DNA of 64,000 nt, from NCBI GenBank assembly GCA_963676565.1, contig OY781089.1, forward strand, positions 2,688,001-2,752,000, in the 5' to 3' direction. Shown here one piece after another: positions 42,928-62,372 of the stretch. The translations under genes and the position numbers were made by a program. Position 1 is the first letter of the stretch. Each line of letters starts with the position of its first letter. The notes below the pieces were generated by a model. That model did not search any database. It saw only the letters and a program-made list of their open reading frames with translations, and was not told the DNA's origin. This DNA is from Halarcobacter sp. (GTDB lineage: Bacteria > Campylobacterota > Campylobacteria > Campylobacterales > Arcobacteraceae).

Positions 42928-45063
42928 TTAATCTAAAACAATTAATGCATCAAGAGCAAAAACACCTTTAGCTTTTGCAACTAAAGGATTAATCTCTACT
43001 TCAGAAATTCTTTCATTTGATACAATCAAATCAGCAATTTTAGTTACTGTTTTTGCAATTGCCTTGATATCTACAGCTTCAGTACCCCTTGCACCTTTCA
43101 ATAATGCTGCAGATTTTAAAGAAGAGATTTCATCAACGATTGCATCAACACCTAAGTCAGGAGTGATTAAACATACATCTTTTAAAACTTCTATCCAAAT
43201 ACCTCCAAGACCAACAAGAACTACTACACCCCATTGTTCATCTCTTCTAGCACCAATTACAATTTCAGCACCTAAATTAGCCATACCTTCAATTAAAATA
43301 CCATCTAATTTAATTCCAGTAGATTCAATACTTGTCATCATTTTATTAAAAGCAACTCTTAATTCATCATCACTTTTAATATTTAACACTACACCACCAG
43401 CATCAGTTTTATGTGCTAATTGTGCAGATTGAGCTTTTAAAACTACAGGATATGACAATTCATTTGCAATTTTGATAGCTTCATCTTCATCTTTTGCTAA
43501 AGCACCTTTTGGAATAGGAATATCAAGTTTTTCTAAAATCTCTTTTGACTTATACTCAGGTACATTTCCTGAATCAAGTTGCGAAATCATATCAATCTTA
43601 ATAATTTCATTTTCCCTTCTTTGTTTAGCTTTATTTCTACAAAGTTTATTAACATTTGATAAGGCTTTCACTGCACTTTCCATTGATTTACCTAATACTA
43701 CACCATTATCTCGAGCTAATGTCATAAACTCTGGCTCATAAACATTTGATTCATCTAAAGGTACATAAATAGCAGGTTTTTCAGGATGTTTTTTCATACT
43801 ATCAATGAAACCATTTAAAAATATACTTTTTGTACCAATATCTTGGTCAGTTGGTAAAACAACTAAGGTAGAACCAATCTTAGGTTCAGTTAATAAAAGA
43901 TCTAGCCCTTTACCAACAAGTTCAGGATCACGTGCAGCTTCAACACCTACATCAAATGGGTTTCTAGCAGGTAAATATTCAGGAATAATATCTTTTAGTT
44001 TTTCTTCAATATCACTTGATAATGCAGCCATAACTAAATTACAATCTTCAAATTGGTCAGTTGCAATTGCGCATACAGCCCCTGAATGTGTCAATAAACC
44101 AACTTCTCCACTTACTGGTTTTGGAAATCTAAGTAATAATTCACTTAAAGTAATTAATTCATCTAAAGAATTAACCATAGCAACACCAGCGTTAAGAAGT
44201 TTTGTTTCCATTAGAGTATAATCACCTGTTAAAGAACCAGTATGTGATTGAGTAATACTTCTTGAAGCTTCACTTCTTCCTGAATGCATTAAAATTACAT
44301 TTTTATTAACAGCGTTTGCTCTTTTAACAGCAGATAGTAAATTTTGTGGATTTTTAATCTCTTCAGCATATATTGCAATTGCTCCTGTATATTCATCTTC
44401 AACAAAGAAATCAATTAAATCAGATAATTCAATATCTGCTTGATTTCCAATTGTTACAGAATAACTTGTAGGAACTGCTCTTTTACCCAATGATTGACCA
44501 ATAAATAAACCAATTCCACCACTTTGAGTAATAATTGCAACTCCTTTTGAACCATTTTTATCAAATGGAACTTGCTTTGGCAAATCAATTAATACAAGAT
44601 GAAAATTGTCAACATAATTAAAATAACCAATACAATTTGGTCCAACTAATCTAATGTTGTTTTCATGGGCATATTTTCCAATTTTATCCTGTAAAGCGTG
44701 ACCTTCCTCACCTAATTCTGCAAAACCAGCACTCATACAAACAACCGTTTTAACATCAATAGTTTTCAAATCAACTATTGCATCATATACACTTGCTGCA
44801 GGGATTGCTAAAATTCCTAAATCAATACCTTTTGGTAAGTCATTAAGATCTGTCTTAATTTCAATACCATCAATATCTGCCTTGTTTCTACCAAGTAAAT
44901 TTATCTCACCTTCATAACCATTTAGTTTTAAAGTTTTGATAATATTTCTTGCACTAGAACTAGGTTTTGCAGAGGCTCCTAAGATTACAACTGATTTTGG
45001 ATTCAATAATGAAGAGATAGATTCAACTGTCTCTTCATTAGTTCTTTTTATTGCTTTATTCAA
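42928..45063 (-). CDS. fcs: NDP-forming acyl-CoA synthetase (fused alpha/beta), probable feruloyl/coumaroyl-CoA synthetase
   Basis: LLNPKSVVILGAS, GPNCIG, QSGG, SHTGSL, HKTDAGGV, EINPL; in an operon with ech and vdh. Confidence 0.8.
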   Translation of the reverse strand: MNKAIKRTNEETVESISSLLNPKSVVILGASAKPSSSARNIIKTLKLNGYEGEINLLGRNKADIDGIEIKTDLNDLPKGIDLGILAIPAASVYDAIVDLKTIDVKTVVCMSAGFAELGEEGHALQDKIGKYAHENNIRLVGPNCIGYFNYVDNFHLVLIDLPKQVPFDKNGSKGVAIITQSGGIGLFIGQSLGKRAVPTSYSVTIGNQADIELSDLIDFFVEDEYTGAIAIYAEEIKNPQNLLSAVKRANAVNKNVILMHSGRSEASRSITQSHTGSLTGDYTLMETKLLNAGVAMVNSLDELITLSELLLRFPKPVSGEVGLLTHSGAVCAIATDQFEDCNLVMAALSSDIEEKLKDIIPEYLPARNPFDVGVEAARDPELVGKGLDLLLTEPKIGSTLVVLPTDQDIGTKSIFLNGFIDSMKKHPEKPAIYVPLDESNVYEPEFMTLARDNGVVLGKSMESAVKALSNVNKLCRNKAKQRRENEIIKIDMISQLDSGNVPEYKSKEILEKLDIPIPKGALAKDEDEAIKIANELSYPVVLKAQSAQLAHKTDAGGVVLNIKSDDELRVAFNKMMTSIESTGIKLDGILIEGMANLGAEIVIGARRDEQWGVVVLVGLGGIWIEVLKDVCLITPDLGVDAIVDEISSLKSAALLKGARGTEAVDIKAIAKTVTKIADLIVSNERISEVEINPLVAKAKGVFALDALIVLD

Positions 45064-45084
45064 TTTAAAAACCTTGATTCTAAA

Positions 45085-46533
45085 TTAAAATGGATAATGG
45101 TGATTACCTAAAGCTTCAACAGTAACCCATTTAAGTTCAGTCATCTCTTCAATAGAGAAGTGCCCACCTTCTCTACCCATACCACTATCTTTAATTCCAC
45201 CAAATGGAATATGAGCCTCATCCATAATTGTAGGTCCATTAATATGAACCATACCAGCTTCAATCTCTTCAGATAATTTTAAAGCATTACCAATATCATT
45301 AGTTATAACAGCAGAACTTAATCCATAGTTTGTCATATTTGCAACTTCAACTGCTTCTTCAACAGTTTTTACTTTAATAAGTGCTGCAACAGGACCAAAT
45401 GCTTCATCATGATAAACTTTCATCTCTTCTGTAACATAAGAGATTACTGTTGGCTCATAAAAACAACCAGAGTGAGAATTACCACATAAAACTTTTGCAC
45501 CCTTAGAAACTGCATCATTTACTAATCCATCAATAAAACTACATTGTGCTTCTTCAATTAATGGACCAACAACAGTTGTAGGTAAACTAGGATCAGAAGC
45601 TTTAATTCCAGAAATTTTAGCTGCAAATTTTTCAGCAAATTTATCAAAAATCTCTTCTTGAACAATGATTTTAGAACCAGCCATACAAATTTGACCTTGG
45701 TGCATAAAAATAGAAAATGCAGCAGTATCAACAGCATAGTCAACATCTGCATCATTTAAGATAATCATAGGAGACTTTCCACCAAGTTCAACTGTAAATT
45801 TTGTAAGATTTGCAGCTGCACTTGAAGCAATTAATTTACCAGTTGAAGTTGAACCTGTAAATGTAATCATCTTAACTCTTTTATCAGTTTGAAAAGTTTC
45901 ACCTAAAACTGAACTTGAACAAGGAATTACATTAAATACTCCATCAGGAAGTCCCGCTTCTTTAAATATCTCACCAAATACTAAACCTGTAATTGCAGTA
46001 TTTGAAGATGGTTTTAGTACAAAAGTATTACCAGCAGCAATTGCAAATGCAAACTTTTTAGATGATAAAATCATAGGTGCATTAAATGGAGCAATACCAG
46101 CAATAACACCTAATGGTCTTCTAATACTATAAGATAACATACCAGTTTCATTTGTAGCATGTGTATATCCTGCTACTCTTCTACATTCACCAGCAGCAAC
46201 TCTAAAGATATCAGCAACTAATCCAATTTCAAACATTGATTTACCAAAAGCAGAACCTGTTTCAGTAATTAAAATCTCTCTAATCTCCTCAGTTCTACTT
46301 TCAAAAATATCAGCAGCTTTTAATAAAATTGCTTCCCTTTCCCTTGGAGTAGTATTTGCCCAAGATTTTGATGCTTTATGAGCTGCATCAATTGCAGACT
46401 CAATATCCTCTTTACTTGCCATATGAACCTTAGCAAAAGCCTTACCTGTTGAAGGAGAGATATCATCAACTATAGTATTTGATGATGAAGGAACATCTTG
46501 ACCATTAATAAATAATTTATATTCTTTTTTCAT
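45085..46533 (-). CDS. vdh: aromatic aldehyde (vanillin-type) dehydrogenase
   Basis: FTGST, ELGGK, HQGQICM, EAFGP, PFGGIKDSG; operon context. Confidence 0.82.
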   Translation of the reverse strand: MKKEYKLFINGQDVPSSSNTIVDDISPSTGKAFAKVHMASKEDIESAIDAAHKASKSWANTTPREREAILLKAADIFESRTEEIREILITETGSAFGKSMFEIGLVADIFRVAAGECRRVAGYTHATNETGMLSYSIRRPLGVIAGIAPFNAPMILSSKKFAFAIAAGNTFVLKPSSNTAITGLVFGEIFKEAGLPDGVFNVIPCSSSVLGETFQTDKRVKMITFTGSTSTGKLIASSAAANLTKFTVELGGKSPMIILNDADVDYAVDTAAFSIFMHQGQICMAGSKIIVQEEIFDKFAEKFAAKISGIKASDPSLPTTVVGPLIEEAQCSFIDGLVNDAVSKGAKVLCGNSHSGCFYEPTVISYVTEEMKVYHDEAFGPVAALIKVKTVEEAVEVANMTNYGLSSAVITNDIGNALKLSEEIEAGMVHINGPTIMDEAHIPFGGIKDSGMGREGGHFSIEEMTELKWVTVEALGNHHYPF

Positions 46534-46543
46534 TTTTAATACC

Positions 46544-47575
46544 TTATTGTTTTGCTATAGATTCTTTAACTGCATCTACAATTTTTTGTCCATCGATACC
46601 TTTACCCTTCATTTCAGAAACCCATTTTTGAACAGTTCTTTCACCTGCTGCATCAAATTTTGCTGTTTCTTCTTCGCTTAAAGTAACGATTTCTCCACCT
46701 GATTTAACTTGTAAAGCTTTTCCAATTGCTTCAAAATCATCTGCTAATTTTGCAAATTTAGCAATTTGTTTTTTTCCTGTTGTAGCAGCTAAAACATCTT
46801 TTAACTCTTGAGATAAGCTATTATATTTTTCTTTATTCATTAGTAGTAAAAGTACAGAACCACCAAATCCTCCACCACCTTTGATTTCAGTAGTGTATTT
46901 AGTTAATTGTTGAAACTTAAATGCTGGGAAAATTTCCATTGGTAAAGCTGCACCATCAACTGCACCTTTAGATAAAGCTTGAGGAGCCGCAGGTAAAGGC
47001 ATACCAACTGGTTCTGCACCTAACTCTTGAATATACCAAGCACCCGTTCTAGATGGAGATCTTAATTTTAATCCCTTAACTGCATCTATTGAATCAACTT
47101 TTTTGCTAACTGTACTTAATTGATAAGGCCCAGCCATTGCAATTACAAGTGGATGTACATCCGTATAGTCATCTTTTAATAAATCAAAATTTTCTTTTGC
47201 TGCTAGAGCTGTTTTTAAACTTGAGTTTGTATGTACAGTTGGCAGTTCTAAAACTTCAGTTCTAGGGAAAACACCTGGAGTATAACCTGCAACTGTGTAA
47301 ACTATGTCAGCGACACCATCTCTTGCTTGTTTATATAATTCATTTGGTTTACCACCCATACTCATAGATGGAAACATTTCAATTTTAATTTTACCTTTTG
47401 AAAGTTTTTCAACTTCAGCTGCCCATGGCTCTAAAAGCTTAGCATAAGGTGGTGCTTTTGGACTTAAAAATGTATGCATTGTAAGCACTACTTCTTTTTC
47501 TGCACCCCATAATGAGCTTACTAATAACATTGATCCAGCTAAACCTAGTGTTGCTTTTTTAACTAACTTATTCAT
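46544..47575 (-). CDS. dctP: TRAP transporter substrate-binding protein
   Basis: Signal peptide, KIEMFP, DG.ADI, YTPGVFP, GLKLRSP. Confidence 0.9.
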   Translation of the reverse strand: MNKLVKKATLGLAGSMLLVSSLWGAEKEVVLTMHTFLSPKAPPYAKLLEPWAAEVEKLSKGKIKIEMFPSMSMGGKPNELYKQARDGVADIVYTVAGYTPGVFPRTEVLELPTVHTNSSLKTALAAKENFDLLKDDYTDVHPLVIAMAGPYQLSTVSKKVDSIDAVKGLKLRSPSRTGAWYIQELGAEPVGMPLPAAPQALSKGAVDGAALPMEIFPAFKFQQLTKYTTEIKGGGGFGGSVLLLLMNKEKYNSLSQELKDVLAATTGKKQIAKFAKLADDFEAIGKALQVKSGGEIVTLSEEETAKFDAAGERTVQKWVSEMKGKGIDGQKIVDAVKESIAKQ

Positions 47576-47658
47576 AATTGTCTTTCCCTTTTGTAATATA
47601 TTTACCTACTGATTATAACGTCCCACCATAGCAAATAAATAACATCAATAACAATTTT

Positions 47659-48486
47659 TTATCTTTCGATATCTTTGTTATAAGCACCTAAACCTGGCTT
47701 ATAAGTTTTCTCATAAATAAATTGTTTAATTCCTTCTTTTCTACCTGTATCATCAAAGTAGTTTGCAGCTTCTTGAGCTTTTACTAAATACTCTTCAGCA
47801 TTTTGATATGTCATTTCAGAAACTTTTCTAACTGCTTGTTTAGTAGCATGTAAAGCAACAGGATTTTTCTCTTTTAATACATTACAAACTTCAATAACTC
47901 TGTCTTTTAGTTTATCTGCATCGCAAGCTTCATTTACTAATCCCCATTGAGCAGCTTTTTCACCATCTACATTTTCACCCATCATTGAATGGTACATAGC
48001 ATCTCTAAAACTTAATAATTCAACTGCAACTTTAGTAGCACCTCCACCTGGTAAAATTCCCCAGTTAATTTCAGATAATCCAAATTGTGCATCTTTAGAT
48101 GCAAATGCTAAATCACAAGCGAATAATGGTCCATAAGCACCACCAAAACACCATCCATTTACCATTGCAATTGTTGGTTTATAGAAATCTCTTAGTCTTT
48201 TCCACCATCCATAAGCTTCTCTTTGAGCTTGTCTAATTGCACCTAAACCTTTTGCTTCATTTTCAACAAAGTACTCTTTTAAGTCCATACCTGCACTAAA
48301 TGCTGTACCTTCACCTGTTAAAACAAGAACAGAAACATCTTCTCTATATTCTAATTCATCAAGAATCTCCATCATTCTTCTATTAACAGCTGGACTCATA
48401 CAATTTCTTTTTTCTGGTCTATTATAAGAAACCCATGCAATTCCATCTACTACTTCGTACTTTACAACATCTTTTTCACTACTCAT
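47659..48486 (-). CDS. ech: p-hydroxycinnamoyl-CoA hydratase/lyase
   Basis: NRPEKRN, AGMDLKEYF, MVNGWCFGG, FGLSEINWGI, KTYKPGLGAY typical of HCHL/Ech. Confidence 0.95.
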   Translation of the reverse strand: MSSEKDVVKYEVVDGIAWVSYNRPEKRNCMSPAVNRRMMEILDELEYREDVSVLVLTGEGTAFSAGMDLKEYFVENEAKGLGAIRQAQREAYGWWKRLRDFYKPTIAMVNGWCFGGAYGPLFACDLAFASKDAQFGLSEINWGILPGGGATKVAVELLSFRDAMYHSMMGENVDGEKAAQWGLVNEACDADKLKDRVIEVCNVLKEKNPVALHATKQAVRKVSEMTYQNAEEYLVKAQEAANYFDDTGRKEGIKQFIYEKTYKPGLGAYNKDIER

Positions 48487-48517
48487 CTATTTTTCCTTTT
48501 ATTAATTTGTTTTTTAT

Positions 48518-50539
48518 TTATTTGATTTGCCAATCATGTGCAAATGGTTCTGGTTTAACATCTTTAATTAAAGAACTATTACCATTTTGTGCATCATCAC
48601 CTACCTCTTTAAGAAATTTTCTTAAATTTTCAGTAGAAGATAAACCTTTTAATACCTGAATACCCTCAATTTCAACTTTTAGTATTTCAGAATATAAAGC
48701 TGCAATTGATTGTTGAGACTTATCAAGTTTTGATGCATGTGCACAAAGAGCAAGCATCGCAACAAGAAGTTCAATTTTTTTACCCAATCTATGGATTGGA
48801 ACCTGTGCACCAGTTTGTTCTAGTTGATAGTACAAACTCATACCTAGGTAAAGCCATTTACATTTTCGTAGATTTCTTTCTGCATATTGAACATATGGTT
48901 TTAAATCTGCTGGGATTTCGTCATATCTTGCTTTCATTTCTACAGGAACTAATCTTCCTAATAAATGAGGAATCTCTTTTAAACCATTTCCTATAATCCA
49001 AGATATTAATTTATAAAACCCTGGTTTAGTAAGTAGTTTTAAAGTTGCAGTTGTACATCTTCCTGGATATTTCATGAAAGTTTTTAAATCAATTTTTAAA
49101 ATTCTCTCTTCTTTTGCAACTGGTTCTCCATTAATCATGTTTGCTTCTTGTAAAACACTTAACATACTTGCAACATTTTCAGATGTAAATTTTGAAGTTA
49201 TATCTTTAATCATACCCATCAAAATCAAATCATTTTCACCCTCAACAATTCCAAATACATGAATATTTGCTCTAGCTTCTGTAACTCTTGAACTTCTATC
49301 AAAACTTCTTCCACCAATAACTCTTTCACAAGAGATTAATGATTCTAAAGCTGAACTTGCTGCAAAAGATTTTGAGATATCTCTTAAACCAGCTAAATCC
49401 ACTCCATTTTTATCTTGGTTCAAAGAAAGGTGAGATAAAGCTTGAGAGGTTAATGCTCCACCTAGCATTTTTCCAATTCGTAGACGTGGTAATTCATGTT
49501 TGATAATAGGCCCACCAACACCTAATCTTTTAATTGCATAATTAACAGAATCTGATGCCATCATTCTTTGATAACCTGCACACATTGCAGTTAGCATACA
49601 TCTACCCATTCTAAGGCAATAAAATAAAACCTCTACTCCATCAGCTTTGATTTCATTTTCTACTGGAATTGGGAAGTTTGAGAAAGTAATTCTTGTGTTA
49701 TAAATTGATTTAAAGGCATCAGAATTTGAAGAAACAATATTAAAACTATATTCATCATTTTTGATATCATCTTCAGGAAGTTCGATGATAAATAAACCAA
49801 TTTTTTTACCACCTTTTCCAATTCTTGCAGCAATTGCCATAATACCACCATAAATAGCACTAGTGATATAATGTTTATTTGCAGCTCCTTCAGCAAATAA
49901 TCTGTAACAATTATTCTCTTCATCCTTTTCAACGTAAGCTTGGATTTTTTTAGCATTTACTCCAACACCTACTTCTGTTAATGCAAAAGAAGTGATTCTT
50001 CCACTAGAAATCATTGGTAAAAATATAGATTTTTGTCTATCATCTCCATATCCAAGTAATGAACTTGAACCAATTGTAAGTTGTCCAGAAATTTCAACTG
50101 CTAATGCCCCTATACCATTTGCAGCTAGTGACTCTTCCATAATTGCTAATTGATTGTAGTTTAAACCTAAACCATTGTATTCAGCTGGAACAGTAAAACC
50201 ATAGGCATTTTTCTTAGATACTTCTTCCCTTAAAGTATTTGATAACTTTCCATCTGCTTCGAAAGCTTGTCCACTTTCTAATAAATTTAATGCTGTTTCT
50301 AAAATCTCATCTGCTTCTTTTGTTTTTGCATTTTGCATTGCAACTGAACCTGCTGAGATTTCAGATAAATCTGGTTGTGGACCATAAATTAATCTTTCAA
50401 CTAAACTTGATTTTGTAATATTTAATTTTTTCATCGCATCTGACATTGCTGAATCTAAAGCACCAACATCTTGAGCTTGTACATGATCACCTGCAGCAGC
50501 TAATGCTTCCGTTGCAGCTGATTGACCATTTTTCCCCAT
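48518..50539 (-). CDS. large acyl-CoA dehydrogenase family protein
   Basis: VPAEYNGLG, SFALTE, LRMGR, IVEGENDLI. Confidence 0.85.
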   Translation of the reverse strand: MGKNGQSAATEALAAAGDHVQAQDVGALDSAMSDAMKKLNITKSSLVERLIYGPQPDLSEISAGSVAMQNAKTKEADEILETALNLLESGQAFEADGKLSNTLREEVSKKNAYGFTVPAEYNGLGLNYNQLAIMEESLAANGIGALAVEISGQLTIGSSSLLGYGDDRQKSIFLPMISSGRITSFALTEVGVGVNAKKIQAYVEKDEENNCYRLFAEGAANKHYITSAIYGGIMAIAARIGKGGKKIGLFIIELPEDDIKNDEYSFNIVSSNSDAFKSIYNTRITFSNFPIPVENEIKADGVEVLFYCLRMGRCMLTAMCAGYQRMMASDSVNYAIKRLGVGGPIIKHELPRLRIGKMLGGALTSQALSHLSLNQDKNGVDLAGLRDISKSFAASSALESLISCERVIGGRSFDRSSRVTEARANIHVFGIVEGENDLILMGMIKDITSKFTSENVASMLSVLQEANMINGEPVAKEERILKIDLKTFMKYPGRCTTATLKLLTKPGFYKLISWIIGNGLKEIPHLLGRLVPVEMKARYDEIPADLKPYVQYAERNLRKCKWLYLGMSLYYQLEQTGAQVPIHRLGKKIELLVAMLALCAHASKLDKSQQSIAALYSEILKVEIEGIQVLKGLSSTENLRKFLKEVGDDAQNGNSSLIKDVKPEPFAHDWQIK

Positions 50540-50603
50540 TCCTCGTCCTTTTTTTCACATTTCATTTTATATATTGTCAGTTTAACAACAAAAAACTTAA
50601 ATT

Positions 50604-50621
50604 TATCTTACTAGTAAAGTA
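50604..50621. promoter_or_regulatory. probable MarR operator
   Basis: TATCTTACTAGTAAAGTA (core TTACTAGTAA palindrome) between the divergent MarR and acyl-CoA dehydrogenase genes. Confidence 0.5.
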
Positions 50622-50702
50622 CTTTTAAATGAATTGTAAAATATTTTTAAGATACTTATATTTTTTATAGAAGATTAATTTAAGTTTCGCTACTCTTTTG
50701 CT

Positions 50703-51188
50703 ATGGATAAAAAAGAATTAGAATTAAGAATAGAACGGGTTAAAGAAAAGAAACCCGAAATTTACAATGATGTTTTGACTATTGTAGTCCCTTTTTATAT
50801 GTTTCACAATGATTTAAGGGAAGGTATTACAAAAATACAAGAAACTAAATATAATATTACAAATAGTGAAATTGATGTGATGAGATGTTTATATTTATCA
50901 AAAAATGATGATAATACATTAAGTCCAACAAAAATATACAATAAACTAATGTTTACATCTGGTGCTATTACTAAAGTATTAAAAAAACTTGAAGATAGAG
51001 GTTATGTTGTTAGACTTGAAAACAAATTTGATAAAAGAAGTAAACTTGTAAAGTTAACAGAAGAAGGTGCAAAGGTTTGCAAAGCCTGTTTTTCAGATAT
51101 GCTTGCATATGAAGAAAAAAGATTCTCAAAACTAACAGAAGAAGAAAAAAAGATTTATACAGAATTAACTCAAAAACTTTTACATTAA
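50703..51188 (+). CDS. MarR family regulator (positional analogue of FerC/HcaR/CouR)
   Basis: TSGAITKVLKKLEDRGYV, DKRSKLVKLT. Confidence 0.93.
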   Translation: MDKKELELRIERVKEKKPEIYNDVLTIVVPFYMFHNDLREGITKIQETKYNITNSEIDVMRCLYLSKNDDNTLSPTKIYNKLMFTSGAITKVLKKLEDRGYVVRLENKFDKRSKLVKLTEEGAKVCKACFSDMLAYEEKRFSKLTEEEKKIYTELTQKLLH

Positions 51189-51221
51189 TACTTCTTGAGA
51201 AGTTTTAATGTATCTGTTATT

Positions 51222-51827
51222 TTAAAATATTTTTCTAGATAAAATTAATTCTATACCTTTCCCACTTACATATACAGTTATTAAACTATATAAAGTAATT
51301 TCAATATTTTTAAAAACAAAACCTGCAACTATAATAATAACTGCATCAAAAAATATCAAAATATGTTGTTCTTTAAAATTAGTTTTATGAGATATTAATT
51401 TAGAAACAACTGCTGGTCCTCCTGCTGCAGCATTACCTTTAATAATAAAACCAAGTGCAACACCTACAACTATACCACCATATATACTTGCAAGTATAGG
51501 GTCAATTACAAAACCCTCAAATTGTAAAAATTCTCTAAAAAAATCTACTGTAAAAGATGTAATTAGGATTGTAATAACAGTTCTTATTCCATATTTTTTA
51601 TTTATAAATTTTATACTTAATAGAATTAGGGGGATATTAATCATTAACATTAATACCCCAAGTGGTAAGCCAATTACTTTATTTAAAATCATAGCAATTC
51701 CAGGTGAGCCACCTGGAAATATATAGTTAGGTGCTAAAAAAGTTACTACAGACAGTGATAATAAAATACCTCCAGTAAAAATATAAAGATAGTTTTTTAA
51801 CTCAACTTTTTTATTAATGTTTTTCAC
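51222..51827 (-). CDS. YitT family membrane protein
   Basis: PGGSPGIA, INIPL, AAGG; GTG start. Confidence 0.88.
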   Translation of the reverse strand: MKNINKKVELKNYLYIFTGGILLSLSVVTFLAPNYIFPGGSPGIAMILNKVIGLPLGVLMLMINIPLILLSIKFINKKYGIRTVITILITSFTVDFFREFLQFEGFVIDPILASIYGGIVVGVALGFIIKGNAAAGGPAVVSKLISHKTNFKEQHILIFFDAVIIIVAGFVFKNIEITLYSLITVYVSGKGIELILSRKIF

Positions 51828-51830
51828 TAT

Positions 51831-52613
51831 TTATGTATTCCAAGATGGATCTAGTTTTGATATAAGTCTATAATAAGCTGGCCATTCAGGGAACCTAACC
51901 TCAGCTCCTGCTTGTGCAGCTCCCCCTTCAAACTGTTCTCTTGTTCTTAAAATTGCATCTTCACTTGCTTGAATTAACTTTTCCCCTGTAGACATTGCTT
52001 TTATTTGAACTTTACAACCTTGTATTAATTGGAACATTCTATGAAAAGCCCATACTACACTATCTCCAGTTGTAATAACTCCATGATTATGTAACATAAT
52101 TGAGTGTTTATCCTCACCCATTGCTAATACTAATCTTTCTTGCTCACTTTCATCTAAAACTATTCCTTCAAATTTATGATATCCAAGTCTTTCATGGAAT
52201 TGATATGATTCTTGCATCAAAGGAATAAATCCACACTCTAAAGCACTAACTGCTTGTGTATCTGGATTATGAGTATGTAGAACACAACTTATATCTGGTC
52301 TTGCTTTGTGAATAGCAGAATGAATTACAAATCCTGCTTTATTTACTGGATAGGGACTATCATCTATCTTTTCACCATCTAAATTTATTTTTACTAAATT
52401 TGATGGTTTAATCTCACCATATAATAAACCAAATGGATTTATTAATACCTCTTCTGTTCCTGGAATCCTATATGAAATATGATTATAAACTTGTGTAGTC
52501 CAACCATAATAATCAACCATTCTATAACATAAAGCCAAATCAACTCTAGCTTGCCATTCAACTTCACTATAACCTTTTGGTGTTTGTTGTGTTTTAAAAA
52601 TATCTTTCATCAT
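51831..52613 (-). CDS. class II aldolase/adducin family protein (NovR/CloR-like subfamily)
   Basis: RVDLA, YNHISYR, GFVIHSAIH, VLHTH, LHNHG. Confidence 0.9.
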   Translation of the reverse strand: MMKDIFKTQQTPKGYSEVEWQARVDLALCYRMVDYYGWTTQVYNHISYRIPGTEEVLINPFGLLYGEIKPSNLVKINLDGEKIDDSPYPVNKAGFVIHSAIHKARPDISCVLHTHNPDTQAVSALECGFIPLMQESYQFHERLGYHKFEGIVLDESEQERLVLAMGEDKHSIMLHNHGVITTGDSVVWAFHRMFQLIQGCKVQIKAMSTGEKLIQASEDAILRTREQFEGGAAQAGAEVRFPEWPAYYRLISKLDPSWNT

Positions 52614-52619
52614 ATTACC

Positions 52620-53534
52620 CTATTGTGGTCTTTCACCCATTATTGTTGTTCTATACATCTCTCTTCTAAATCCTTCATAATCATTAAAAGCTTGATGTAA
52701 ACAGATTCTATTGTCCCACATGATAAATGTTTTTGAATACCATTTTAATCTACAACAAAAAGCCTCTTGTGTTGCAAAGTCTGCTAAAAAATTGATTAAA
52801 GGCATCGATTCAGCCTCAGTCATACCTTCAATTCCACAAGCATAAGTTTTATCTACAAAAAGTGCCTTTTCACCTGTAACTGGGTGAGTTCTAACTATAG
52901 GATGATATGAACCTTTAATCATATTCTGAGTGTTAACATCAAACTCCATATTTCCAAAGTTTTTGATTTCACCTTTGTTATTTTGTTCTGAATAGATTTG
53001 CTCAACTACTCTTTTTCCACTCATCCAAACTTTTAGTGGAGCAATCATCTCTTTCATAGCATCACTTAAACTATTATATGCAAGTACATTGTTTGCATAT
53101 AATGTATCTCCACCATAAGGTGGCATATCCTTTCCATAATTAAAGGCAACGGCAGGTGGTTTTTCTAAAAATGCAGAATCCGTATGCCAACCACTTCCAA
53201 ATACCATCTCAGTTTTTGTACTAGCTTCTTTAATAACTGGTTGAATATTTTCATGACCTTCTACACCTTTTGTGTATGCATCAGTTCCAAACTCACCAAA
53301 TCTAAGTGTAATATTTTCATGATCAGTAAATGAAATATCTTGATCTCTAAAAATGATTAGTTTATGTCTGTATAAAGCATCTTCAATTTCATTTTTAGTC
53401 TCATCATCAAAATTACTTAAATCAACACCACTAATCTCAGCACCCATTGCTGCTGCAATTGGTTTAACTTTAATATTTTTGTACTCTTTTGCACTATTAT
53501 CAAATAATCCTATTGGATGAACAATACTTCCCAT
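52620..53534 (-). CDS. TauD/TfdA family Fe(II)/2-oxoglutarate dioxygenase (RdpA-like)
   Basis: GAEISGVDL, WHTDS, GGDT, HPIVRTHP, WDNRICLH. Confidence 0.93.
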   Translation of the reverse strand: MGSIVHPIGLFDNSAKEYKNIKVKPIAAAMGAEISGVDLSNFDDETKNEIEDALYRHKLIIFRDQDISFTDHENITLRFGEFGTDAYTKGVEGHENIQPVIKEASTKTEMVFGSGWHTDSAFLEKPPAVAFNYGKDMPPYGGDTLYANNVLAYNSLSDAMKEMIAPLKVWMSGKRVVEQIYSEQNNKGEIKNFGNMEFDVNTQNMIKGSYHPIVRTHPVTGEKALFVDKTYACGIEGMTEAESMPLINFLADFATQEAFCCRLKWYSKTFIMWDNRICLHQAFNDYEGFRREMYRTTIMGERPQ

Positions 53535-53542
53535 AATAAATC

Positions 53543-54574
53543 CTATTCGTTTTCTTTTATTGCACGTCTAGCTTCATCTACAAGTTTTTGACCATCAAGT
53601 CCTTTTGCATTAACTTCATTAATCCATCTTGTAACAACTCTTTGTCCGGCTTCATTAAATTTTTTCATTTGTTCAGCGTTTAACTTTACAACCTCTCCAC
53701 CCTTTGATTCATTTTGTAATTTAATACCTGGTTTTTCAACATCCATCCAAAGTTGACCTAACTCTTTTGTTTTTTCTAAACCAGTATTATTTTCAATAAC
53801 TTGTTGTAGCTCTTTTGGTAATTTGTTAAATTTATCTTTATTCATTAAAAATAAAAATACTGATGTTCCAAATCTATCACCATTTTCACCTTCAGCCGAA
53901 TATTGTGTAATTTGGTGGAATTTAAATGGAGCAAATACTTCAAATGGGAATATTGCCCCATCAATAGCTTTTTTAGATAATGCTTGTGGAACTGCAGGAA
54001 GTGGCATTCCAACTGGCTCAGCCCCATACTCTTCAATCAACCATGCACCCGTTCTAGAAGGTGATCTTAATTTAAGCCCTTTTAAATCAGAAACATCTGT
54101 AACTTTTTTATCAACCATATGAAGTGCATTTCCAGCGGCAACATATACAACTAAAGGTTTAACATCTTTATAATCTTCTTTAATCATGTCGAAGTTTTTT
54201 TCAATTGCTACTGATGTTGCAACGGCATTCCCTTTGTGTACTGTTGGTAGTTCGTACACTTCAGTTCTTTGAAACACTCCAGGGGTATACCCTGCAACTG
54301 TCCAAACAATATCAGTTGAACCATCTCTAACTTGTTTATATAATTCATTTGGTTTTCCACCCATACTCATTGATGGAAAGATTTCTATTTTCAACTTTCC
54401 ATTTGATTCTTTTTCAATTTTTTTTGCCCATGGCACAAAAAACTTTGTATGTGCTGGTGATTTAGAACTTAAAAAGTGATGTAGTGTTAATGTAGTAGTT
54501 TCAGCATACAATGAACTACTTAATAATAATGCTCCTAAAGCACTTAATCTCTTACTTTTAGTTGTTAAATTCAT
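53543..54574 (-). CDS. dctP: TRAP transporter substrate-binding protein (start moved to MNLTTK)
   Basis: Paralog of 46544-47575; AAAAGGG RBS. Confidence 0.9.
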   Translation of the reverse strand: MNLTTKSKRLSALGALLLSSSLYAETTTLTLHHFLSSKSPAHTKFFVPWAKKIEKESNGKLKIEIFPSMSMGGKPNELYKQVRDGSTDIVWTVAGYTPGVFQRTEVYELPTVHKGNAVATSVAIEKNFDMIKEDYKDVKPLVVYVAAGNALHMVDKKVTDVSDLKGLKLRSPSRTGAWLIEEYGAEPVGMPLPAVPQALSKKAIDGAIFPFEVFAPFKFHQITQYSAEGENGDRFGTSVFLFLMNKDKFNKLPKELQQVIENNTGLEKTKELGQLWMDVEKPGIKLQNESKGGEVVKLNAEQMKKFNEAGQRVVTRWINEVNAKGLDGQKLVDEARRAIKENE

Positions 54575-54660
54575 TCTTTTCCCTTTTAATAAATTTAATT
54601 CAGTATAACGATTAAAAACAGAAAATAGAAGGCAAATTTTTAACAATTCCTGATACTATT

Positions 54661-55512
54661 TTAACATTTTGATAAATATTCTTTTGGAGTTAATTTCTCA
54701 TATTTTTTAAAAAATTTTGCAAAATATGAAGGGTTTTCAAAACCTAACTCATAGGCAATAGTTTGGATTGTTTTGTTTCTTGTTACAATCTCTCTTTTGG
54801 CTTCTAAAATTAATCTTTGGTGTATCATTTGAGTAATTGTAGAACCTGATATTTTTTTAACAATTTCATTTAATCTTTTTGTAGATAAATCCATCTTTCT
54901 TGAATAAAAATCTGCATTTTTCTTCTCTTTGTAGTTTTCTTCAATTAGATTTTTTAAAGTGATTAGTTTTTGAAAATTAGAATCAAGTTTTTGTTGTGAT
55001 TCTGGTTTTAACTCTTCCATATAGTAAAGTAGTGTTTCAAGCAATGATCTTAGAATTGAATTATTTTGATTTTCTTTGTGATACTCTTTTTTTAAAACAT
55101 CCATTATTGGAAAGAGTGTAGAGAATTTATCTGGATCAAAAGTAAGATATGGTTCACAATCAGGATTGAATAGTTTATGTAAAATCTTTTTTATGTTATT
55201 ACTATTTTCTAGTAAAAATGGTTCATTAAAGTTTATGATATATCCATCATATTCATTATTGTATTTTTTTATATTCCATTTATGAGTCTGATTTGGATAG
55301 ATAAAGTATATTCGTCCTTTTTTTAAAGGGTATTCTTCAAAATCTATATCATGGGTTTGATTATCATCTTTTGATTCAGTAATAATAACTATTTCATAAT
55401 ATCTATGTCTATGAATAGGAATAGTCCTATTCATACACCTTTGTTTTATAATAGAAATTCTAAGTTGTTTTTCGTATGTTATTTCATAACTTGGAATTTC
55501 TTTTATATTCAT
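54661..55512 (-). CDS. AraC family regulator with cupin sensor domain
   Basis: HRHRYYE, C-terminal IAYELGFENPSYFAKFFKK. Confidence 0.92.
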   Translation of the reverse strand: MNIKEIPSYEITYEKQLRISIIKQRCMNRTIPIHRHRYYEIVIITESKDDNQTHDIDFEEYPLKKGRIYFIYPNQTHKWNIKKYNNEYDGYIINFNEPFLLENSNNIKKILHKLFNPDCEPYLTFDPDKFSTLFPIMDVLKKEYHKENQNNSILRSLLETLLYYMEELKPESQQKLDSNFQKLITLKNLIEENYKEKKNADFYSRKMDLSTKRLNEIVKKISGSTITQMIHQRLILEAKREIVTRNKTIQTIAYELGFENPSYFAKFFKKYEKLTPKEYLSKC

Positions 55513-55522
55513 CTTTTAACTT

Positions 55523-56737
<1,215 letters not shown>

Positions 56738-56754
56738 TCATTATAAAAGCTTTT

Positions 56755-56793
56755 TGTTCCATATAAAATACTAATGTTCCTCTATATGGGACA
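56755..56793. promoter_or_regulatory. probable IclR operator(s) between pobA and the divergent IclR gene
   Basis: TGTTCC-TCTATAT-GGGACA at 56775-56793 plus a repeated TGTTCC at 56755. Confidence 0.5.
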
Positions 56794-56858
56794 AAAAAGC
56801 AAATTTTTCGGGAATTTAGTATAAAATATAGAAAATTTATGAATTTTGGAGTATTTAT

Positions 56859-57623
56859 ATGAACAAAAGTTCGAATCTATCTTCAGTTGAAAATGCACTG
56901 AAAATATTAGAATGTTTTACAATTGATGATACAGAAAAAAGAGTAACTGAGATTTCAAATGAACTTGGATTGGCAAAAAGTACGGTGAGTCGTCTTTTAA
57001 AAACTTTACTAAACCAAGGTTATGTAAAAAAGAATCCTACTAATCAAAAATACTCTTTAGGAAATAAAGTATTAACTTTATATAGCTCACTAATGTCTAA
57101 TATGGAAATAGTAAAAGAGGCTCATCCATATCTAGAAGAATTAGCAAAAGAAACTTCTGAGTCTGTACAACTTGCAGAACTGGATAATAAAAAAGTTATC
57201 TATATGGAACAAATCAAATCTAGTTTTCCTATACAGATTTTTGCTCATATTGGAAGAGTTAATCCCGTTCATTGTACAAGTTCAGGAAAACTATTACTTG
57301 CCTACCAAGATTTTCAAACTATTGAAAATATTTTGAGTAATGGATTAGAAAAATTTACTCCATATACAATCACAGATGAAAATAAATTAAAAAAAGAACT
57401 TTTAGAAATAAGAGACTTAGGTTACTGCTATATAGAAAATGAATTTATAGATGGTATTGTTTCAATAGCTGCTCCAATACGAGATTATAATAAAAATGTA
57501 GTAGCAGCAGTTTCGCTTGTGGGACCTATTCAAAGAATAAATGGAGTTAAAGCTCAAAAATATATAAATAGAGTAGTTCAGACTGCAAAAGATATATCTT
57601 ATAGTATGGGGTATATGTATTAG
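56859..57623 (+). CDS. IclR family regulator
   Basis: SVENALKILE, LAKSTVSRLL, HCTSSGKLLLA. Confidence 0.93.
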   Translation: MNKSSNLSSVENALKILECFTIDDTEKRVTEISNELGLAKSTVSRLLKTLLNQGYVKKNPTNQKYSLGNKVLTLYSSLMSNMEIVKEAHPYLEELAKETSESVQLAELDNKKVIYMEQIKSSFPIQIFAHIGRVNPVHCTSSGKLLLAYQDFQTIENILSNGLEKFTPYTITDENKLKKELLEIRDLGYCYIENEFIDGIVSIAAPIRDYNKNVVAAVSLVGPIQRINGVKAQKYINRVVQTAKDISYSMGYMY

Positions 57624-60367: not shown

Positions 60368-60400
60368 AAATAAAATAGACTAAAAAAGTCTATTTTATTT
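60368..60400. terminator. bidirectional terminator
   Basis: AAATAAAATAGACT-5nt-AGTCTATTTTATTT. Confidence 0.8.
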
Positions 60401-60909
60401 TAGTGTGTTAATTTAGCTAACTGAATAATCATATTATTAGCTGTATCTTCATTTAATGGTTTTTCATATGTTGTAAGAAGTTCTCTTGCTATAATATTTG
60501 CACCTAAATGTTGAAACATCATTCTCATAGCTTGAAGCCCTTTAGCTCCACCTCCACCACTGTGAGTTGCTACTGCTACAACTTTTTCATTAAAAGCATC
60601 TCTCCAGTTATCAGTTGCCCTTGAAGTCCATGCCATAGCATTGTTAAGTACTGGTGGCATAACTCCATTGTATTCAGGAGCAACCACAATAAAAGCCTTC
60701 AAATCTAAAATTCTCTCTGCCAAATATTTTGCAATCTCAGGCACACCATTTTTTTCTTCCTCTTTAGTACTATATAAAGGTAAATCTAAATCAACTAAAT
60801 TGATAAGTTCAACTTGACACCCCTGCTCTATTGCTAACTCTTCAAGTTTTAATGCTAATTTTTGATTATTCCCTGAGCTTGCAACTAATATTCCTATTTT
60901 AAACATCAT
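60400..60909 (-). CDS. NAD(P)H-dependent FMN reductase (flavodoxin-like)
   Basis: APEYNGVMPPVLNNA.AW.SR, HSGGGG. Confidence 0.9.
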   Translation of the reverse strand: MMFKIGILVASSGNNQKLALKLEELAIEQGCQVELINLVDLDLPLYSTKEEEKNGVPEIAKYLAERILDLKAFIVVAPEYNGVMPPVLNNAMAWTSRATDNWRDAFNEKVVAVATHSGGGGAKGLQAMRMMFQHLGANIIARELLTTYEKPLNEDTANNMIIQLAKLTH

Positions 60910-60911
60910 AA

Positions 60912-62372
60912 TTATCCTTCTTTTATACCTGAGTTAATCATAAACTCTTCAACTTGATTCCATGTAAAATTCTTTTGTGCATTTACATGTCCAAACATTT
61001 GATTTCTTTGTTGTGAAGTTAAATAATATCTTTCATATAATTCAACTCTTCCCCCAAGTGCAGAGCCTGCAAAATCCCAAGCGATTCTAAATATTTGTGC
61101 TCTTTCTTGTGCACCTTCATCATTTGCACTTGGCATATATTTATTTAATAAATCTTTCATCTCAGGATTTTTATAAGAATTAATTGTAGGAGTTGCAAGT
61201 AAATTATGACTTCCAATTGTTTTGATAATATCATTTACTCTTATCATCCAAGCAGGCATATTAGCTATTAACGCTCTCATTGGACTTTCATCAAAGAAAA
61301 ACGCACCATTACCCCAGTCATGAGCTCCTTCCATTCCAGCTTTTATTGATGACCTTGTCAATTGTGAGTAAGACCAAATCTCACCTAACATCATAATAAC
61401 TTCAGGTCTTTTATCTGTTTTGATAATTTTTGCCATTCTATGGCATAAATCATATGCAAACTCCAATTTAACCGCTGCTCTAATTCCTGTTTGTTGAGTG
61501 ATATTTCCATATCTTCCTAATTGATCAATTACAGTTTTATTATAAAATGCCAAATCACCATCCATAAATACTCTATTTAATGGAATCTCAACTTTATCAA
61601 AAATCACATAAGCATCTTGCTCATCAAATCTAGAAGAAAATGGTGCATCTTGAATTGAAGCATTTACTTCATAATGGTCTCTACAAACCATTATTACACC
61701 CTTTGTATTTACAGGAATAGAAAACATTAAAGCATGGTCAGCACTTCCATTACTAGTAATTGGTGCAGAAGGATAAACAAAAAGTTCATCTGCAAATGGC
61801 CCAAGGGTTGCTAAGATTTTTGCACCACTTACAACTATACAATCATCTCTTCTTTCAACTACTTTAAATGCTACTTCACCATTTATCCCATCTAAATCTG
61901 GCTGACTTTTATCAGGTTGTGGTTGAATAATTGTATGGGTTAAAGATAAATCTTTTTCAAGAACTTCTCTATAAAAAGCTTCTAAATTATCCGCCCACTT
62001 GTGATGACCAGCTGCTCTAAAAGCATCAGTTCTACTTACATAACCTGTTAGTGCAACATTACAATAATCAGGTGTTCTTCCTAACATTCCATTTGAATAT
62101 TTTGCAAGTCGTTCAAAACATTTTGCTCTTGCTTCTAAATCTTCTTTGTTTTTAGGCAAAATTAAACTAGCTGTCATTAACTCACCTGTAACTTCATCAG
62201 TAACTAAACAATCATCAGCATATTTTTGTTGCCAATCAAAATACCCTGCCATACCTTGCAAAGAACCTTTAAAAGATGGATGTTCAAATAGATTGACTTT
62301 TTTACCATCAATCCAAATCTCTCTTTCATCTTTTAAACCATCTAAGTATTGTTTTCCGTTTCTTGCTGCCAT
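60912..62372 (-). CDS. HpaB-family two-component flavin monooxygenase, oxygenase component
   Basis: YLDGLKDEREIWIDG, GRTPDY, VSGAKILAT, SSRFDEQDA, GRVELYE. Confidence 0.9.
   Translation of the reverse strand: MAARNGKQYLDGLKDEREIWIDGKKVNLFEHPSFKGSLQGMAGYFDWQQKYADDCLVTDEVTGELMTASLILPKNKEDLEARAKCFERLAKYSNGMLGRTPDYCNVALTGYVSRTDAFRAAGHHKWADNLEAFYREVLEKDLSLTHTIIQPQPDKSQPDLDGINGEVAFKVVERRDDCIVVSGAKILATLGPFADELFVYPSAPITSNGSADHALMFSIPVNTKGVIMVCRDHYEVNASIQDAPFSSRFDEQDAYVIFDKVEIPLNRVFMDGDLAFYNKTVIDQLGRYGNITQQTGIRAAVKLEFAYDLCHRMAKIIKTDKRPEVIMMLGEIWSYSQLTRSSIKAGMEGAHDWGNGAFFFDESPMRALIANMPAWMIRVNDIIKTIGSHNLLATPTINSYKNPEMKDLLNKYMPSANDEGAQERAQIFRIAWDFAGSALGGRVELYERYYLTSQQRNQMFGHVNAQKNFTWNQVEEFMINSGIKEG

Follow-up and report, generated by a model that had tools for sequence, protein, structure and literature searches.

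A recurrent tauD–aldoII gene pair as a candidate cassette for feeding aromatic acids into 4-hydroxybenzoate and protocatechuate catabolism

A 64,000-nucleotide stretch of the genome of a Halarcobacter species (contig OY781089.1, positions 2,688,001 to 2,752,000; hereafter the window) contains a run of four minus-strand genes, dctP2–tauD–aldoII–yitT, of which the first encodes the solute-binding protein of a tripartite ATP-independent periplasmic (TRAP) transporter, the second an Fe(II)/2-oxoglutarate (2OG) dioxygenase of the TauD/TfdA family and the third a putative metalloenzyme of the class II aldolase fold, which we refer to as AldoII. Here we report that the two middle genes form a conserved unit that recurs in operons for the breakdown of 4-hydroxybenzoate and protocatechuate in two bacterial phyla. 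It is likely, in our judgment, that tauD–aldoII is a mobile, two-enzyme, upper-pathway cassette that converts an imported aromatic carboxylate to 4-hydroxybenzoate, or directly to protocatechuate, and that this product is consumed by PobA and by the ring-cleavage enzymes of the lig or pca pathway.

Recurrence and transfer of the gene pair

The dioxygenase gene is an accessory gene, as it is carried by only 4 of 61 related genomes (this one counted) and by 2 of the 401 genomes sampled from the class to which Psychrobacter belongs. To define its neighborhood we considered close relatives, that is, those with 68–90% identity in the protein. The aldolase gene was found directly after tauD at all 12 genome loci of this kind, which represent 10 distinct other genomes (L004 is the same locus as L011, and L005 the same as L013) from Aliarcobacter, Arcobacter and Halarcobacter assemblies and four Psychrobacter. 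It was likewise found directly after tauD at all 15 assessable metagenome loci among the best 80 of 470 relatives, a locus being assessable if its dioxygenase was at least 68% identical and at least 300 nucleotides (nt) of downstream DNA were present (L024 and L036 were too short). Because the adjacency recurs in every assessable related locus, the arrangement is not due to chance. Meanwhile, yitT had no match in the 12 genome loci or in the 80 metagenome loci; it is specific to this genome and lies outside the conserved module. The conserved unit is the dioxygenase–aldolase pair and not the four genes that a preliminary description of this DNA had grouped together. We also observed that the Aliarcobacter locus with the closest dioxygenase (89%; L006:8922-10502) has two tandem copies of aldoII after tauD, whose products are 76% and 70% identical to AldoII of the window.

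In three Arcobacteraceae (G020, G028 and G062) the pair is embedded in an operon for the 4,5-cleavage of protocatechuate, ligI–ligK–ligJ–ligA–ligB–ligC–dctP–dctQ–dctM–tauD–aldoII–pobA–eamA–iclR, with the variation that pobA is placed between ligB and ligC in G028. In a Psychrobacter genome (G061), on the other hand, it is found in a pca operon for 3,4-cleavage, pcaR–dctP–tauD–aldoII–pcaF–pcaD/C–pcaH–pcaG–pobA–pcaI–pcaJ. Given that the 4,5- and 3,4-cleavage routes have nothing in common past protocatechuate, the pair is expected to act upstream of that compound. The idea that the pair replaces a missing ring-cleavage enzyme, such as a LigU-type isomerase, was rejected, since the pair is also present in the chemically unrelated 3,4-cleavage operon. 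In a second architecture, araC–(dctP)–tauD–aldoII, the regulatory gene precedes tauD (G003, L006 and L010), and the gene upstream of araC is variously vanA, an acyl-CoA synthetase gene or pobA. Indeed, araC is immediately upstream of (dctP–)tauD–aldoII in every Arcobacteraceae locus that carries it, and the AraC orthologues in G003, L006 and L010 exhibit 67–68% identity. In 8 of the 10 other genomes no more than 5 kb separates pobA from the pair, the exceptions being L006 and L010, in which a hydroxycinnamate (hca) operon is immediately upstream; such an operon adjoins the pair in this genome and in G003 as well. The location downstream of pobA, which had been put forward as part of the module, is not a conserved order, as pobA may be before the pair, after it or some 4 kb away. 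Linkage to aromatic genes, on which the preliminary description had staked its interpretation, was nonetheless found in two phyla and comprises lig and pca operons, pobA, TRAP binding proteins of the aromatic-acid type and hca genes.

The sequences further indicate that the pair has been transferred horizontally as a unit, a conclusion that follows from three comparisons. Between this genome and Psychrobacter, the dioxygenase is 74–75% identical and AldoII 73–74% identical, as compared to 59% for PobA and about 30% for the adjacent DctP. Maximum-likelihood trees place the TauD sequences that come with the pair in a monophyletic clade on a long stem (support 100/99), and AldoII of the Psychrobacter type groups inside with two Arcobacteraceae sequences (100/98, in a tree rooted by a long-branched outgroup). 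The PobA tree, in contrast, is split deeply by phylum (about 1.6 changes per site). The G+C content of the pair, overall and at third codon positions, is ameliorated relative to the flanks in both hosts, and the direction of transfer is not readable from it. The branch that leads to AldoII of the window is unusually long, at 0.4 compared with a median of 0.1.

The dioxygenase and the aldolase-fold protein

The dioxygenase matches PF02668 with 175.3 bits (cut-off 27 bits) over model positions 2–267 of 267 and is the sole member of the family in the genome. Its closest solved relative is RdpA/AAD-1 (6d1o), an (R)-phenoxypropionate/2OG dioxygenase (E = 5.2e-63, 216 bits, residues 16–303), and the motifs from which a likeness to RdpA had been read in the preliminary description are present in the translation. 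Next come structures of taurine dioxygenases, at about 1e-41 to 1e-43 (E. coli TauD, 2.8e-41), then AtsK at about 1e-27 and TfdA (5bke) at 2.7e-21. Residues H117, D119, H280, T144, R291 and R295, which align with H99, D101, H255, T126, R266 and R270, respectively, of E. coli TauD, are invariant in two family alignments, and so the Fe(II)/2OG residues are kept. In E. coli TauD we take the HXD...H residues to bind iron, the Thr and Arg to bind 2OG and the second Arg (R295 here) to bind the anion of the substrate. The enzyme thus looks active and, on the strength of these residues, like a hydroxylase of the alpha carbon of a carboxylate.

As the preliminary description had supposed, the protein does not look like an enzyme of the sulfonate type. 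Its best NCBIfam match is the taurine dioxygenase equivalog NF007104, but the score (197.3 bits) falls well below the 313-bit cut-off, and H70, Y73 and N95 of E. coli TauD, which we presume to be the taurine-contacting positions, are D85, T88 and G113 here. No tauABC or ssu genes were found nearby in the window, where the neighbors are TRAP and aromatic genes. As judged from its sequence, then, the dioxygenase is neither a taurine enzyme nor a plain orthologue of RdpA.

The product of aldoII matches PF00596 (150.3 bits; cut-off 22.2 bits) and NF005451 (PRK07044; 298 bits; cut-off 207 bits). Its metal histidines, H113, H115 and H177, are invariant and align with H92, H94 and H155 of FucA. Other active-site residues of FucA are not conserved: Glu73 aligns with K92, at a variable position that is never acidic; the segment holding Tyr113 is deleted; and Thr43, Ser71 and Ser72 are replaced by F61, V90 and N91. 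AldoII also has conserved N- and C-terminal extensions that are absent from FucA. In FucA, according to the available part of a recent study (bioRxiv 10.1101/2024.10.08.617318), Glu73 and Tyr113' are essential, and Thr43, Ser71 and Ser72 bind phosphate. By this residue test AldoII would not be a canonical aldolase, and, because the FucA-type residues are not conserved, a sugar phosphate is an unlikely ligand for it.

The class II aldolase fold hosts three kinds of three-histidine Fe(II) oxygenase, namely CloR/NovR, TqaM and pyruvic oxime dioxygenase. CloR/NovR is described, in the available part of PMC13111500, as having a three-histidine iron site and as converting a 4-hydroxymandelate derivative, with O2, to the corresponding 4-hydroxybenzoate. 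The available part of bioRxiv 10.1101/2024.10.08.617318 describes pyruvic oxime dioxygenase as a three-histidine Fe(II) oxygenase of the class II aldolase fold and names HMPDdc (2z7b) as a decarboxylase of the same fold. AldoII matches HMPDdc with E = 5.7e-10 and pyruvic oxime dioxygenases with E = 1e-11 to 4e-10. The model for the decarboxylase PhtC (NF053537) gave 40.2 bits (E = 2.4e-10), below the 200 bits that mark membership; models of MtnB-type dehydratases were weak NCBIfam matches; and the ESM Atlas returned generic aldolase/adducin clusters only. Sequence alone does not tell which of the chemistries of the fold AldoII performs.

A proposed route and its alternatives

The idea that seems to fit these observations best is hydroxylation of the alpha carbon of the imported acid followed by shortening of its side chain. 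Specifically, we tentatively propose, as regards the substrate, both reactions and the metal, that 4-hydroxyphenylacetate is converted to 4-hydroxymandelate and then to 4-hydroxybenzoate by two iron oxygenases, independently of coenzyme A (CoA), flavin and thiamine diphosphate (ThDP). The TRAP system would import an arylacetate, most likely 4-hydroxyphenylacetate, and the RdpA-like dioxygenase would hydroxylate the benzylic carbon next to the carboxylate, the attack site being, relative to the carboxylate, that of RdpA and TfdA. The three-histidine site of AldoII would then act as a CloR/NovR-like Fe(II)/O2 center at which 4-hydroxymandelate is oxidatively decarboxylated to 4-hydroxybenzoate, a step that would correspond to the second half-reaction of CloR, and PobA would convert the 4-hydroxybenzoate to protocatechuate. 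In this genome an HpaA-like regulator of the AraC family probably turns on dctP2–tauD–aldoII–yitT. The scheme has a precedent for each enzyme and would need nothing else. The conserved lig and pca operons that contain the pair have no gene for an aldehyde dehydrogenase, nor for a transaminase or dehydrogenase; because these minimal operons are without an aldehyde dehydrogenase, a route that leads straight to an acid is called for.

Evidence from the transporter, the regulator and the rest of the genome bears on this proposal. DctP2 is closest to the TRAP binding proteins 5iga/5i5p (E of about 2e-75), 7nsw (2.6e-70) and 7nr2, and we take the ligands of 5iga, 5i5p and 7nsw to be aromatic acids. 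Orthologues with 65–70% identity to DctP2 precede dctQM–tauD–aldoII in other Arcobacteraceae, and in both phyla the TRAP binding proteins adjacent to the pair appear to be nearest to binders of aromatic acids. The best NCBIfam model for AraC is HpaA (E = 6e-30, the next AraC model being at 7e-16), a regulator for 4-hydroxyphenylacetate (curated NCBIfam model TIGR02297). In this genome HpaD (TIGR02295) reached 24 bits at most, and HpaI (TIGR02311) and HgmA (PF04209) had no match; as far as these models tell, it shows no route of homoprotocatechuate or homogentisate ring cleavage, although one further gene of the LigB family has no assigned role. The substrate of the HpaB-family protein encoded in the window may not be the 4-hydroxyphenylacetate of the classical pathway. 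HpaB was found in none of five other pair-bearing genomes, and p-hydroxycinnamoyl-CoA hydratase/lyase (HCHL) above the cut-off in one of the five, and hence the pair can do without HpaB and without the HCHL route; the vanillate branch entertained in the preliminary description can likewise be dispensed with.

A distant version of the pair is found on a high-G+C metagenome contig (L098:920-7701) in the arrangement tauD–dctP–dctQ–dctM–KPR-like reductase–aldoII–class III aminotransferase, both pair genes having 54–56% identity to those of the window. The reductase is closest to the Enterococcus 2ew2/3wfi group (E of about 1e-35, as compared to about 1e-9 for E. coli PanE), a family said, in the available part of bioRxiv 10.1101/2024.01.05.573888, to include D-mandelate dehydrogenase. 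Its resemblance to a group that includes D-2-hydroxyacid and D-mandelate dehydrogenases, together with the likeness of AraC to HpaA and the missing HpaD, HpaI and homogentisate dioxygenase, constitutes circumstantial support for the arylacetate route.

Several observations weigh against that route. The substrate loop of the dioxygenase is an invariant D85-A86-Y87-T88, as opposed to V-P-L-L in RdpA, and since hydrophobic residues are thereby replaced, the pocket differs from that of RdpA; the polar loop makes it possible that the substrate bears a polar or cationic group (a hydroxyl or an amine). The closest solved relatives of AldoII, 3ocr (E = 6.7e-55), which is an uncharacterized structural-genomics protein, and adducin head domains (3e-48), have no known reaction. 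Moreover, 4xxf, which is annotated as a fuculose-phosphate aldolase, is a better match (6.3e-25) than NovR (9ryg; 3e-18, residues 58–212) or TqaM (2e-18), and so a particular kinship of AldoII with CloR/NovR, the enzymes invoked in the preliminary description, gained no support from these matches. By sequence its histidine triad would suit a Zn or Mn lyase or decarboxylase just as well. AraC scored 104 bits with the HpaA model, far under the 275-bit cut-off. The pairs in lig and pca operons are without a regulator of their own and appear to be governed with the 4-hydroxybenzoate and protocatechuate genes. The L098 arrangement is known from a single contig, and its aminotransferase is of the generic omega-transaminase type rather than a recognizable phenylglycine enzyme. 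Finally, dioxygenase relatives with 51–62% identity (63 metagenome loci) stand mostly alone amid unrelated genes, AldoII being encoded at just one of the 63. Our check of these neighborhoods covered the nearest open reading frame (ORF) on each side, which amounted to 91 of the 230 ORFs within 3.5 kb at the 63 loci; no common operon was seen, and the neighbors were heterogeneous. The exceptions among these relatives point back to the setting of the pair: two (L061 and L097; 55% identity) adjoin a gene for an HCHL that is 69–70% identical to the HCHL of the window, a third (L096; 56% identity) lies between pobA and ligAB–ligI–prpF, with no AldoII in view, and the fourth is L098.

Searches from other starting points added little to this picture. 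The dioxygenase of L098, used as a query against a phylum-wide sample, matched 4 of 401 genomes, and the three that were new have a relative with 46% identity in an uninformative context. AldoII relatives with 39–48% identity were found in 9 of 401 sampled genomes, G061 among them, with heterogeneous neighbors. At two gammaproteobacterial loci (L129:8476-11135 and L130:8646-11286) genes for a TauD-family protein, a crotonase (ECH) and an AldoII relative (41–42% identity) lie side by side on opposite strands. We judged this trio to be probably coincidental, the TauD-family gene being on the other strand and its product 31% identical.

The main rival to the arylacetate mechanism, and one that strikes us as somewhat unlikely, is RdpA/TfdA-like cleavage of a natural (4-carboxyphenoxy)alkanoate, such as a glycolate, lactate or glycerate ether that remains after the oxidation of lignin or algal polymers. 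Hydroxylation of the alpha carbon of the ether would yield a hemiacetal that collapses to 4-hydroxybenzoate and a 2-oxo acid, and AldoII would process the 2-oxo or hydroxy-oxo acid co-product via a metal-enediolate. RdpA is, after all, the closest solved relative of the dioxygenase, which by itself would provide PobA with its substrate, as fits L096 with its pobA and ligAB; AldoII lacks the phosphate site while keeping the metal site for enediolate chemistry; and the TRAP binding proteins belong to the aromatic-acid type. However, the invariant D-A-Y-T takes the place of the hydrophobic loop residues of RdpA, and glyoxylate and pyruvate would need no dedicated enzyme, yet AldoII is kept in all 27 assessable loci. 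Also, we know of no abundant natural substrate of the 4-carboxyphenyl ether acid kind. We consider it unlikely, too, that a phenylpropanoid acid, either p-coumarate or phloretate, or some other substituted benzoate is hydroxylated or epoxidized and then cleaved non-oxidatively, with AldoII serving as a Zn/Mn-dependent retro-aldolase or a PhtC/HMPDdc-like decarboxylase, so that 4-hydroxybenzaldehyde, 4-hydroxybenzoate or protocatechuate is formed without the use of CoA. Such cleavage would accord with the location of the pair beside the hca operon in this genome, G003, L006 and L010, with the HCHL genes next to the relatives in L061 and L097, and with the existence in the AldoII fold of decarboxylases of hydroxy-aromatic dicarboxylates (HMPDdc, and PhtC, whose model matches with E = 2.4e-10). 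But HCHL above the cut-off is missing from four of the five other pair-bearing genomes, and since the operons also have no aldehyde dehydrogenase, an aldehyde product would be stranded; the match to PhtC is 40 bits against 200, and that to HMPDdc only E = 5.7e-10. The members of the dioxygenase family that are known to us hydroxylate the carbon beside an anionic group, which by itself does not shorten a C3 chain.

It is improbable, in our view, that the precursor is non-aromatic or amino-substituted (such as quinate or shikimate, tyrosine, an arylglycine, or acids derived from tyramine), the dioxygenase oxidizing a carbinol or amine-bearing carbon and AldoII serving either as a dehydratase like MtnB or, in the manner of CloR, to decarboxylate 4-hydroxyphenylpyruvate twice. 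The invariant Asp in the loop that lines the substrate could hold an amine or a hydroxyl group, an aminotransferase gene is present in L098, dehydratases of the MtnB type have the same fold and are weak matches to AldoII, and tyrosine would need another route because no homogentisate dioxygenase was seen in the genome. Even so, the TRAP binding proteins are closest to binders of aromatic monocarboxylates, the conserved operons have no transaminase or dehydrogenase, and the CloR variant would leave the dioxygenase without a role, since CloR alone carries out both decarboxylations according to the available part of PMC13111500. Most improbable of all is that the dioxygenase acts on taurine, an alkylsulfonate or a sulfate ester for the scavenging of sulfur and that its position in aromatic operons is incidental. 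It is true that the genome has no second PF02668 member, that many database relatives have been automatically named taurine dioxygenase and that the best NCBIfam model has that name (197 bits). Against this stand the 313-bit cut-off of that model, the replacement of H70, Y73 and N95, the lack of nearby tauABC or ssu genes, the strict co-inheritance with aldoII in lig and pca operons of two phyla, and the rarity of the gene (4 of 61 related genomes, including this one).

Returning to the arylacetate proposal, we found no published description of a 2OG-dependent alpha-hydroxylase of 4-hydroxyphenylacetate, nor of the pairing of a TauD/TfdA enzyme with a class II aldolase in 4-hydroxybenzoate or protocatechuate catabolism, in a search that left most subscription journals outside its reach; this agrees with the earlier remark that no described catabolic pathway with this pairing was known to its author. 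The module is best regarded as a new form of the peripheral funneling of aromatics, its enzymes coming from superfamilies already known. Taken as a whole, the preliminary interpretation was partly supported: it was confirmed as regards the aromatic linkage and the likeness of the dioxygenase to RdpA and was not confirmed as regards the four-gene module, the order downstream of pobA and the likeness of AldoII to CloR.

The aromatic island and comparison with known systems

The account of the locus itself in the preliminary description was correct in every detail that we checked (Table 1). The minus-strand ORFs and their family profiles, with all four Pfam matches above cut-off, bear out four genes directly after pobA–araC, with gaps of 8 nt between dctP2 and tauD (53535–53542), 6 nt between tauD and aldoII (52614–52619) and 3 nt between aldoII and yitT (51828–51830). 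The open frame of dctP2 extends to a TTG at 54646 (53543–54646 by first TTG); the ATG at 54574, which was the end coordinate given earlier, creates a protein with a typical signal peptide. The distance from araC to this ATG is 86 nt, on the same strand, and pobA is located 10 nt upstream of araC.

Table 1. Genes of the tauD–aldoII locus and its surroundings (window numbering)
Feature	Position	Strand	Profile matches and remarks
DctP2, TRAP solute-binding protein	53543..54574	-	ATG start; PF03480, 142.5 bits
TauD/TfdA-family Fe(II)/2OG dioxygenase, RdpA-like clade	52620..53534	-	PF02668; core gene 1 of pair
Class II aldolase-fold metalloenzyme (AldoII), PRK07044 subfamily	51831..52613	-	PF00596, NF005451; core gene 2 of pair
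YitT-family membrane protein, 201 residues	51222..51827	-	PF02588, 160 bits; last gene of operon
AraC-family regulator	54661..55512	-	PF12833, PF02311
PobA, 4-hydroxybenzoate 3-monooxygenase	55523..56716	-	TIGR02360, 613.9 bits (equivalog cut-off 538.7 bits)
IclR-family regulator, PcaR/PcaU/PobR type	56859..57623	+	PF01614, PF09339; divergent from pobA
MarR-family regulator	50703..51188	+	PF01047; divergent from hca operon, convergent with yitT
Hydroxycinnamate (hca-type) operon: acyl-CoA dehydrogenase-like protein, HCHL, DctP1, aldehyde dehydrogenase, ADP-forming acyl-CoA synthetase	42928..50539	-	
HpaB-family flavin monooxygenase and flavin mononucleotide (FMN) reductase	60400..62372	-	PF11794/PF03241, PF03358

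The host genome is 3.34 Mb in size with 28% G+C. The HCHL of the hca operon matches NF006588 (p-hydroxycinnamoyl-CoA hydratase/lyase) with 431 bits, above the 276-bit cut-off, and other profile matches in the operon are PF00171, PF13549/PF13607 and PF03480. Also within the operon (42928–45063 and 48518–50539) are a 711-residue ADP-forming acyl-CoA synthetase resembling ATP-grasp/succinyl-CoA ligases and the first protein of the operon (673 residues), whose matches to acyl-CoA dehydrogenase domains are weak. The IclR-family regulator scored 174 bits with TIGR02431, under the cut-off. A tetR–hpaB–FMN reductase cluster and the start of vanA are likewise in the window, and just past its end, in the same genome (2758513–2766233), is ligI–ligK–ligJ–ligA–ligB–ligC–dctP–dctQ–dctM. 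The catabolic genes of the window and these lig genes therefore make up one aromatic-acid island of about 40 kb, the closest named relatives of whose genes are from Arcobacteraceae. The island encodes four paralogous DctP proteins with 53–63% mutual identity (46544–47575, 53543–54574 and, in window numbering past its end, 65105–66127 and 72453–73466), and one dctQ–dctM pair was found nearby, beside ligC (70513–72403); several orphan DctP binding proteins may share a single membrane unit. At L010, genes for HpaB and an FMN reductase flank a DctP gene. A gene (57667–59646) that separates the pobR-like gene from the hpaB cluster encodes a 659-residue tetratricopeptide repeat (TPR) protein with an N-terminal hydrophobic segment; its DNA has 23–24% G+C, below that of its surroundings, and seems to have been inserted into the aromatic island. 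Elsewhere in the window (28049–30319) we noted a gene for a class I Glu/Gln-tRNA synthetase of 756 residues with a C-terminal GatB/YqeY domain. Counts of promoter-like sites (35, with 36.7 expected) and terminator-like sites (4, with 1.8 expected) in the region 50400–57000 were uninformative in this AT-rich DNA.

The natural role of the relatives of TfdA and RdpA is, to our knowledge, an old open question. A relative of RdpA in a natural setting, complete with a transporter, a regulator, a partner enzyme and a known downstream pathway, makes that question directly testable. If the arylacetate proposal is true, the RdpA/TfdA-like branch of Fe(II)/2OG dioxygenases would gain its first physiological substrate and the CloR-type aldolase-fold oxygenases their first catabolic member, and there would be a candidate enzyme type for the conversion of 4-hydroxymandelate to 4-hydroxybenzoate; AldoII may then be a fourth oxygenase type of the class II aldolase fold. 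Arylacetates are formed in the fermentation of tyrosine and also occur as metabolites of algae. Marine and cold-adapted Arcobacteraceae and Psychrobacter would own a compact, O2-driven feed of arylacetates into protocatechuate cleavage, in the form of a cassette that spreads horizontally and plugs into either cleavage pathway. Current annotation, which labels the genes "taurine dioxygenase" and "aldolase/adducin," would miss the route. The two genes could possibly serve as an engineering part for making 4-hydroxybenzoate from lignin- or tyrosine-derived acids. In the scheme that leads from tyrosine to coenzyme Q10 in animals, evidence for each reaction step is still wanting (PMC13111500, available part).

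How does the pair compare with systems already described? The dioxygenase belongs to the same Pfam family as RdpA/AAD-1, TfdA and SdpA and shares with them the HXD...H triad and two arginines, one for 2OG and one for the substrate anion, and as with RdpA and TfdA its expected site of attack is the carbon beside the carboxylate. In contrast to RdpA, it falls in a separate clade with the D-A-Y-T loop, and its gene is chromosomal, in natural 4-hydroxybenzoate/protocatechuate operons, always with an aldolase-fold gene after it. With E. coli TauD it shares the fold, the cofactor residues and 32% identity, but it is set apart by its score under the equivalog cut-off, its changed taurine positions, the lack of a sulfonate transporter and its aromatic context.

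AldoII, for its part, resembles CloR/NovR in its fold and three-histidine metal site, and the mandelate-to-benzoate reaction of those enzymes is the one proposed for it. The relation is nonetheless distant in sequence, and CloR and NovR belong to aminocoumarin biosynthesis, act on a prenylated substrate, start from a 2-oxo acid and have no partner dioxygenase. Pyruvic oxime dioxygenase (8il8, 8ix6 and 8iqa), in the available part of its description, is like AldoII in having the histidine triad and additional N- and C-terminal segments and in lacking Glu73, Tyr113 and the phosphate site of FucA, but the similarity is weak, and its substrate and its biology (nitrification) are different. PhtC, a 3,4-dihydroxyphthalate decarboxylase whose product is protocatechuate, and HMPDdc are likewise metal enzymes of the aldolase fold that act on hydroxy-aromatic carboxylates, from which AldoII is separated by the low scores given above. 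Finally, the classical routes (HpaBC followed by meta-cleavage of homoprotocatechuate; HmaS/Hmo; and mandelate dehydrogenase with benzoylformate decarboxylase) share the proposed entry compound or intermediate, and the mandelate branch also ends at 4-hydroxybenzoate. They rely, however, on other enzyme families, whereas the route proposed for the tauD–aldoII pair would proceed without a flavin or ThDP step and without an aldehyde intermediate.

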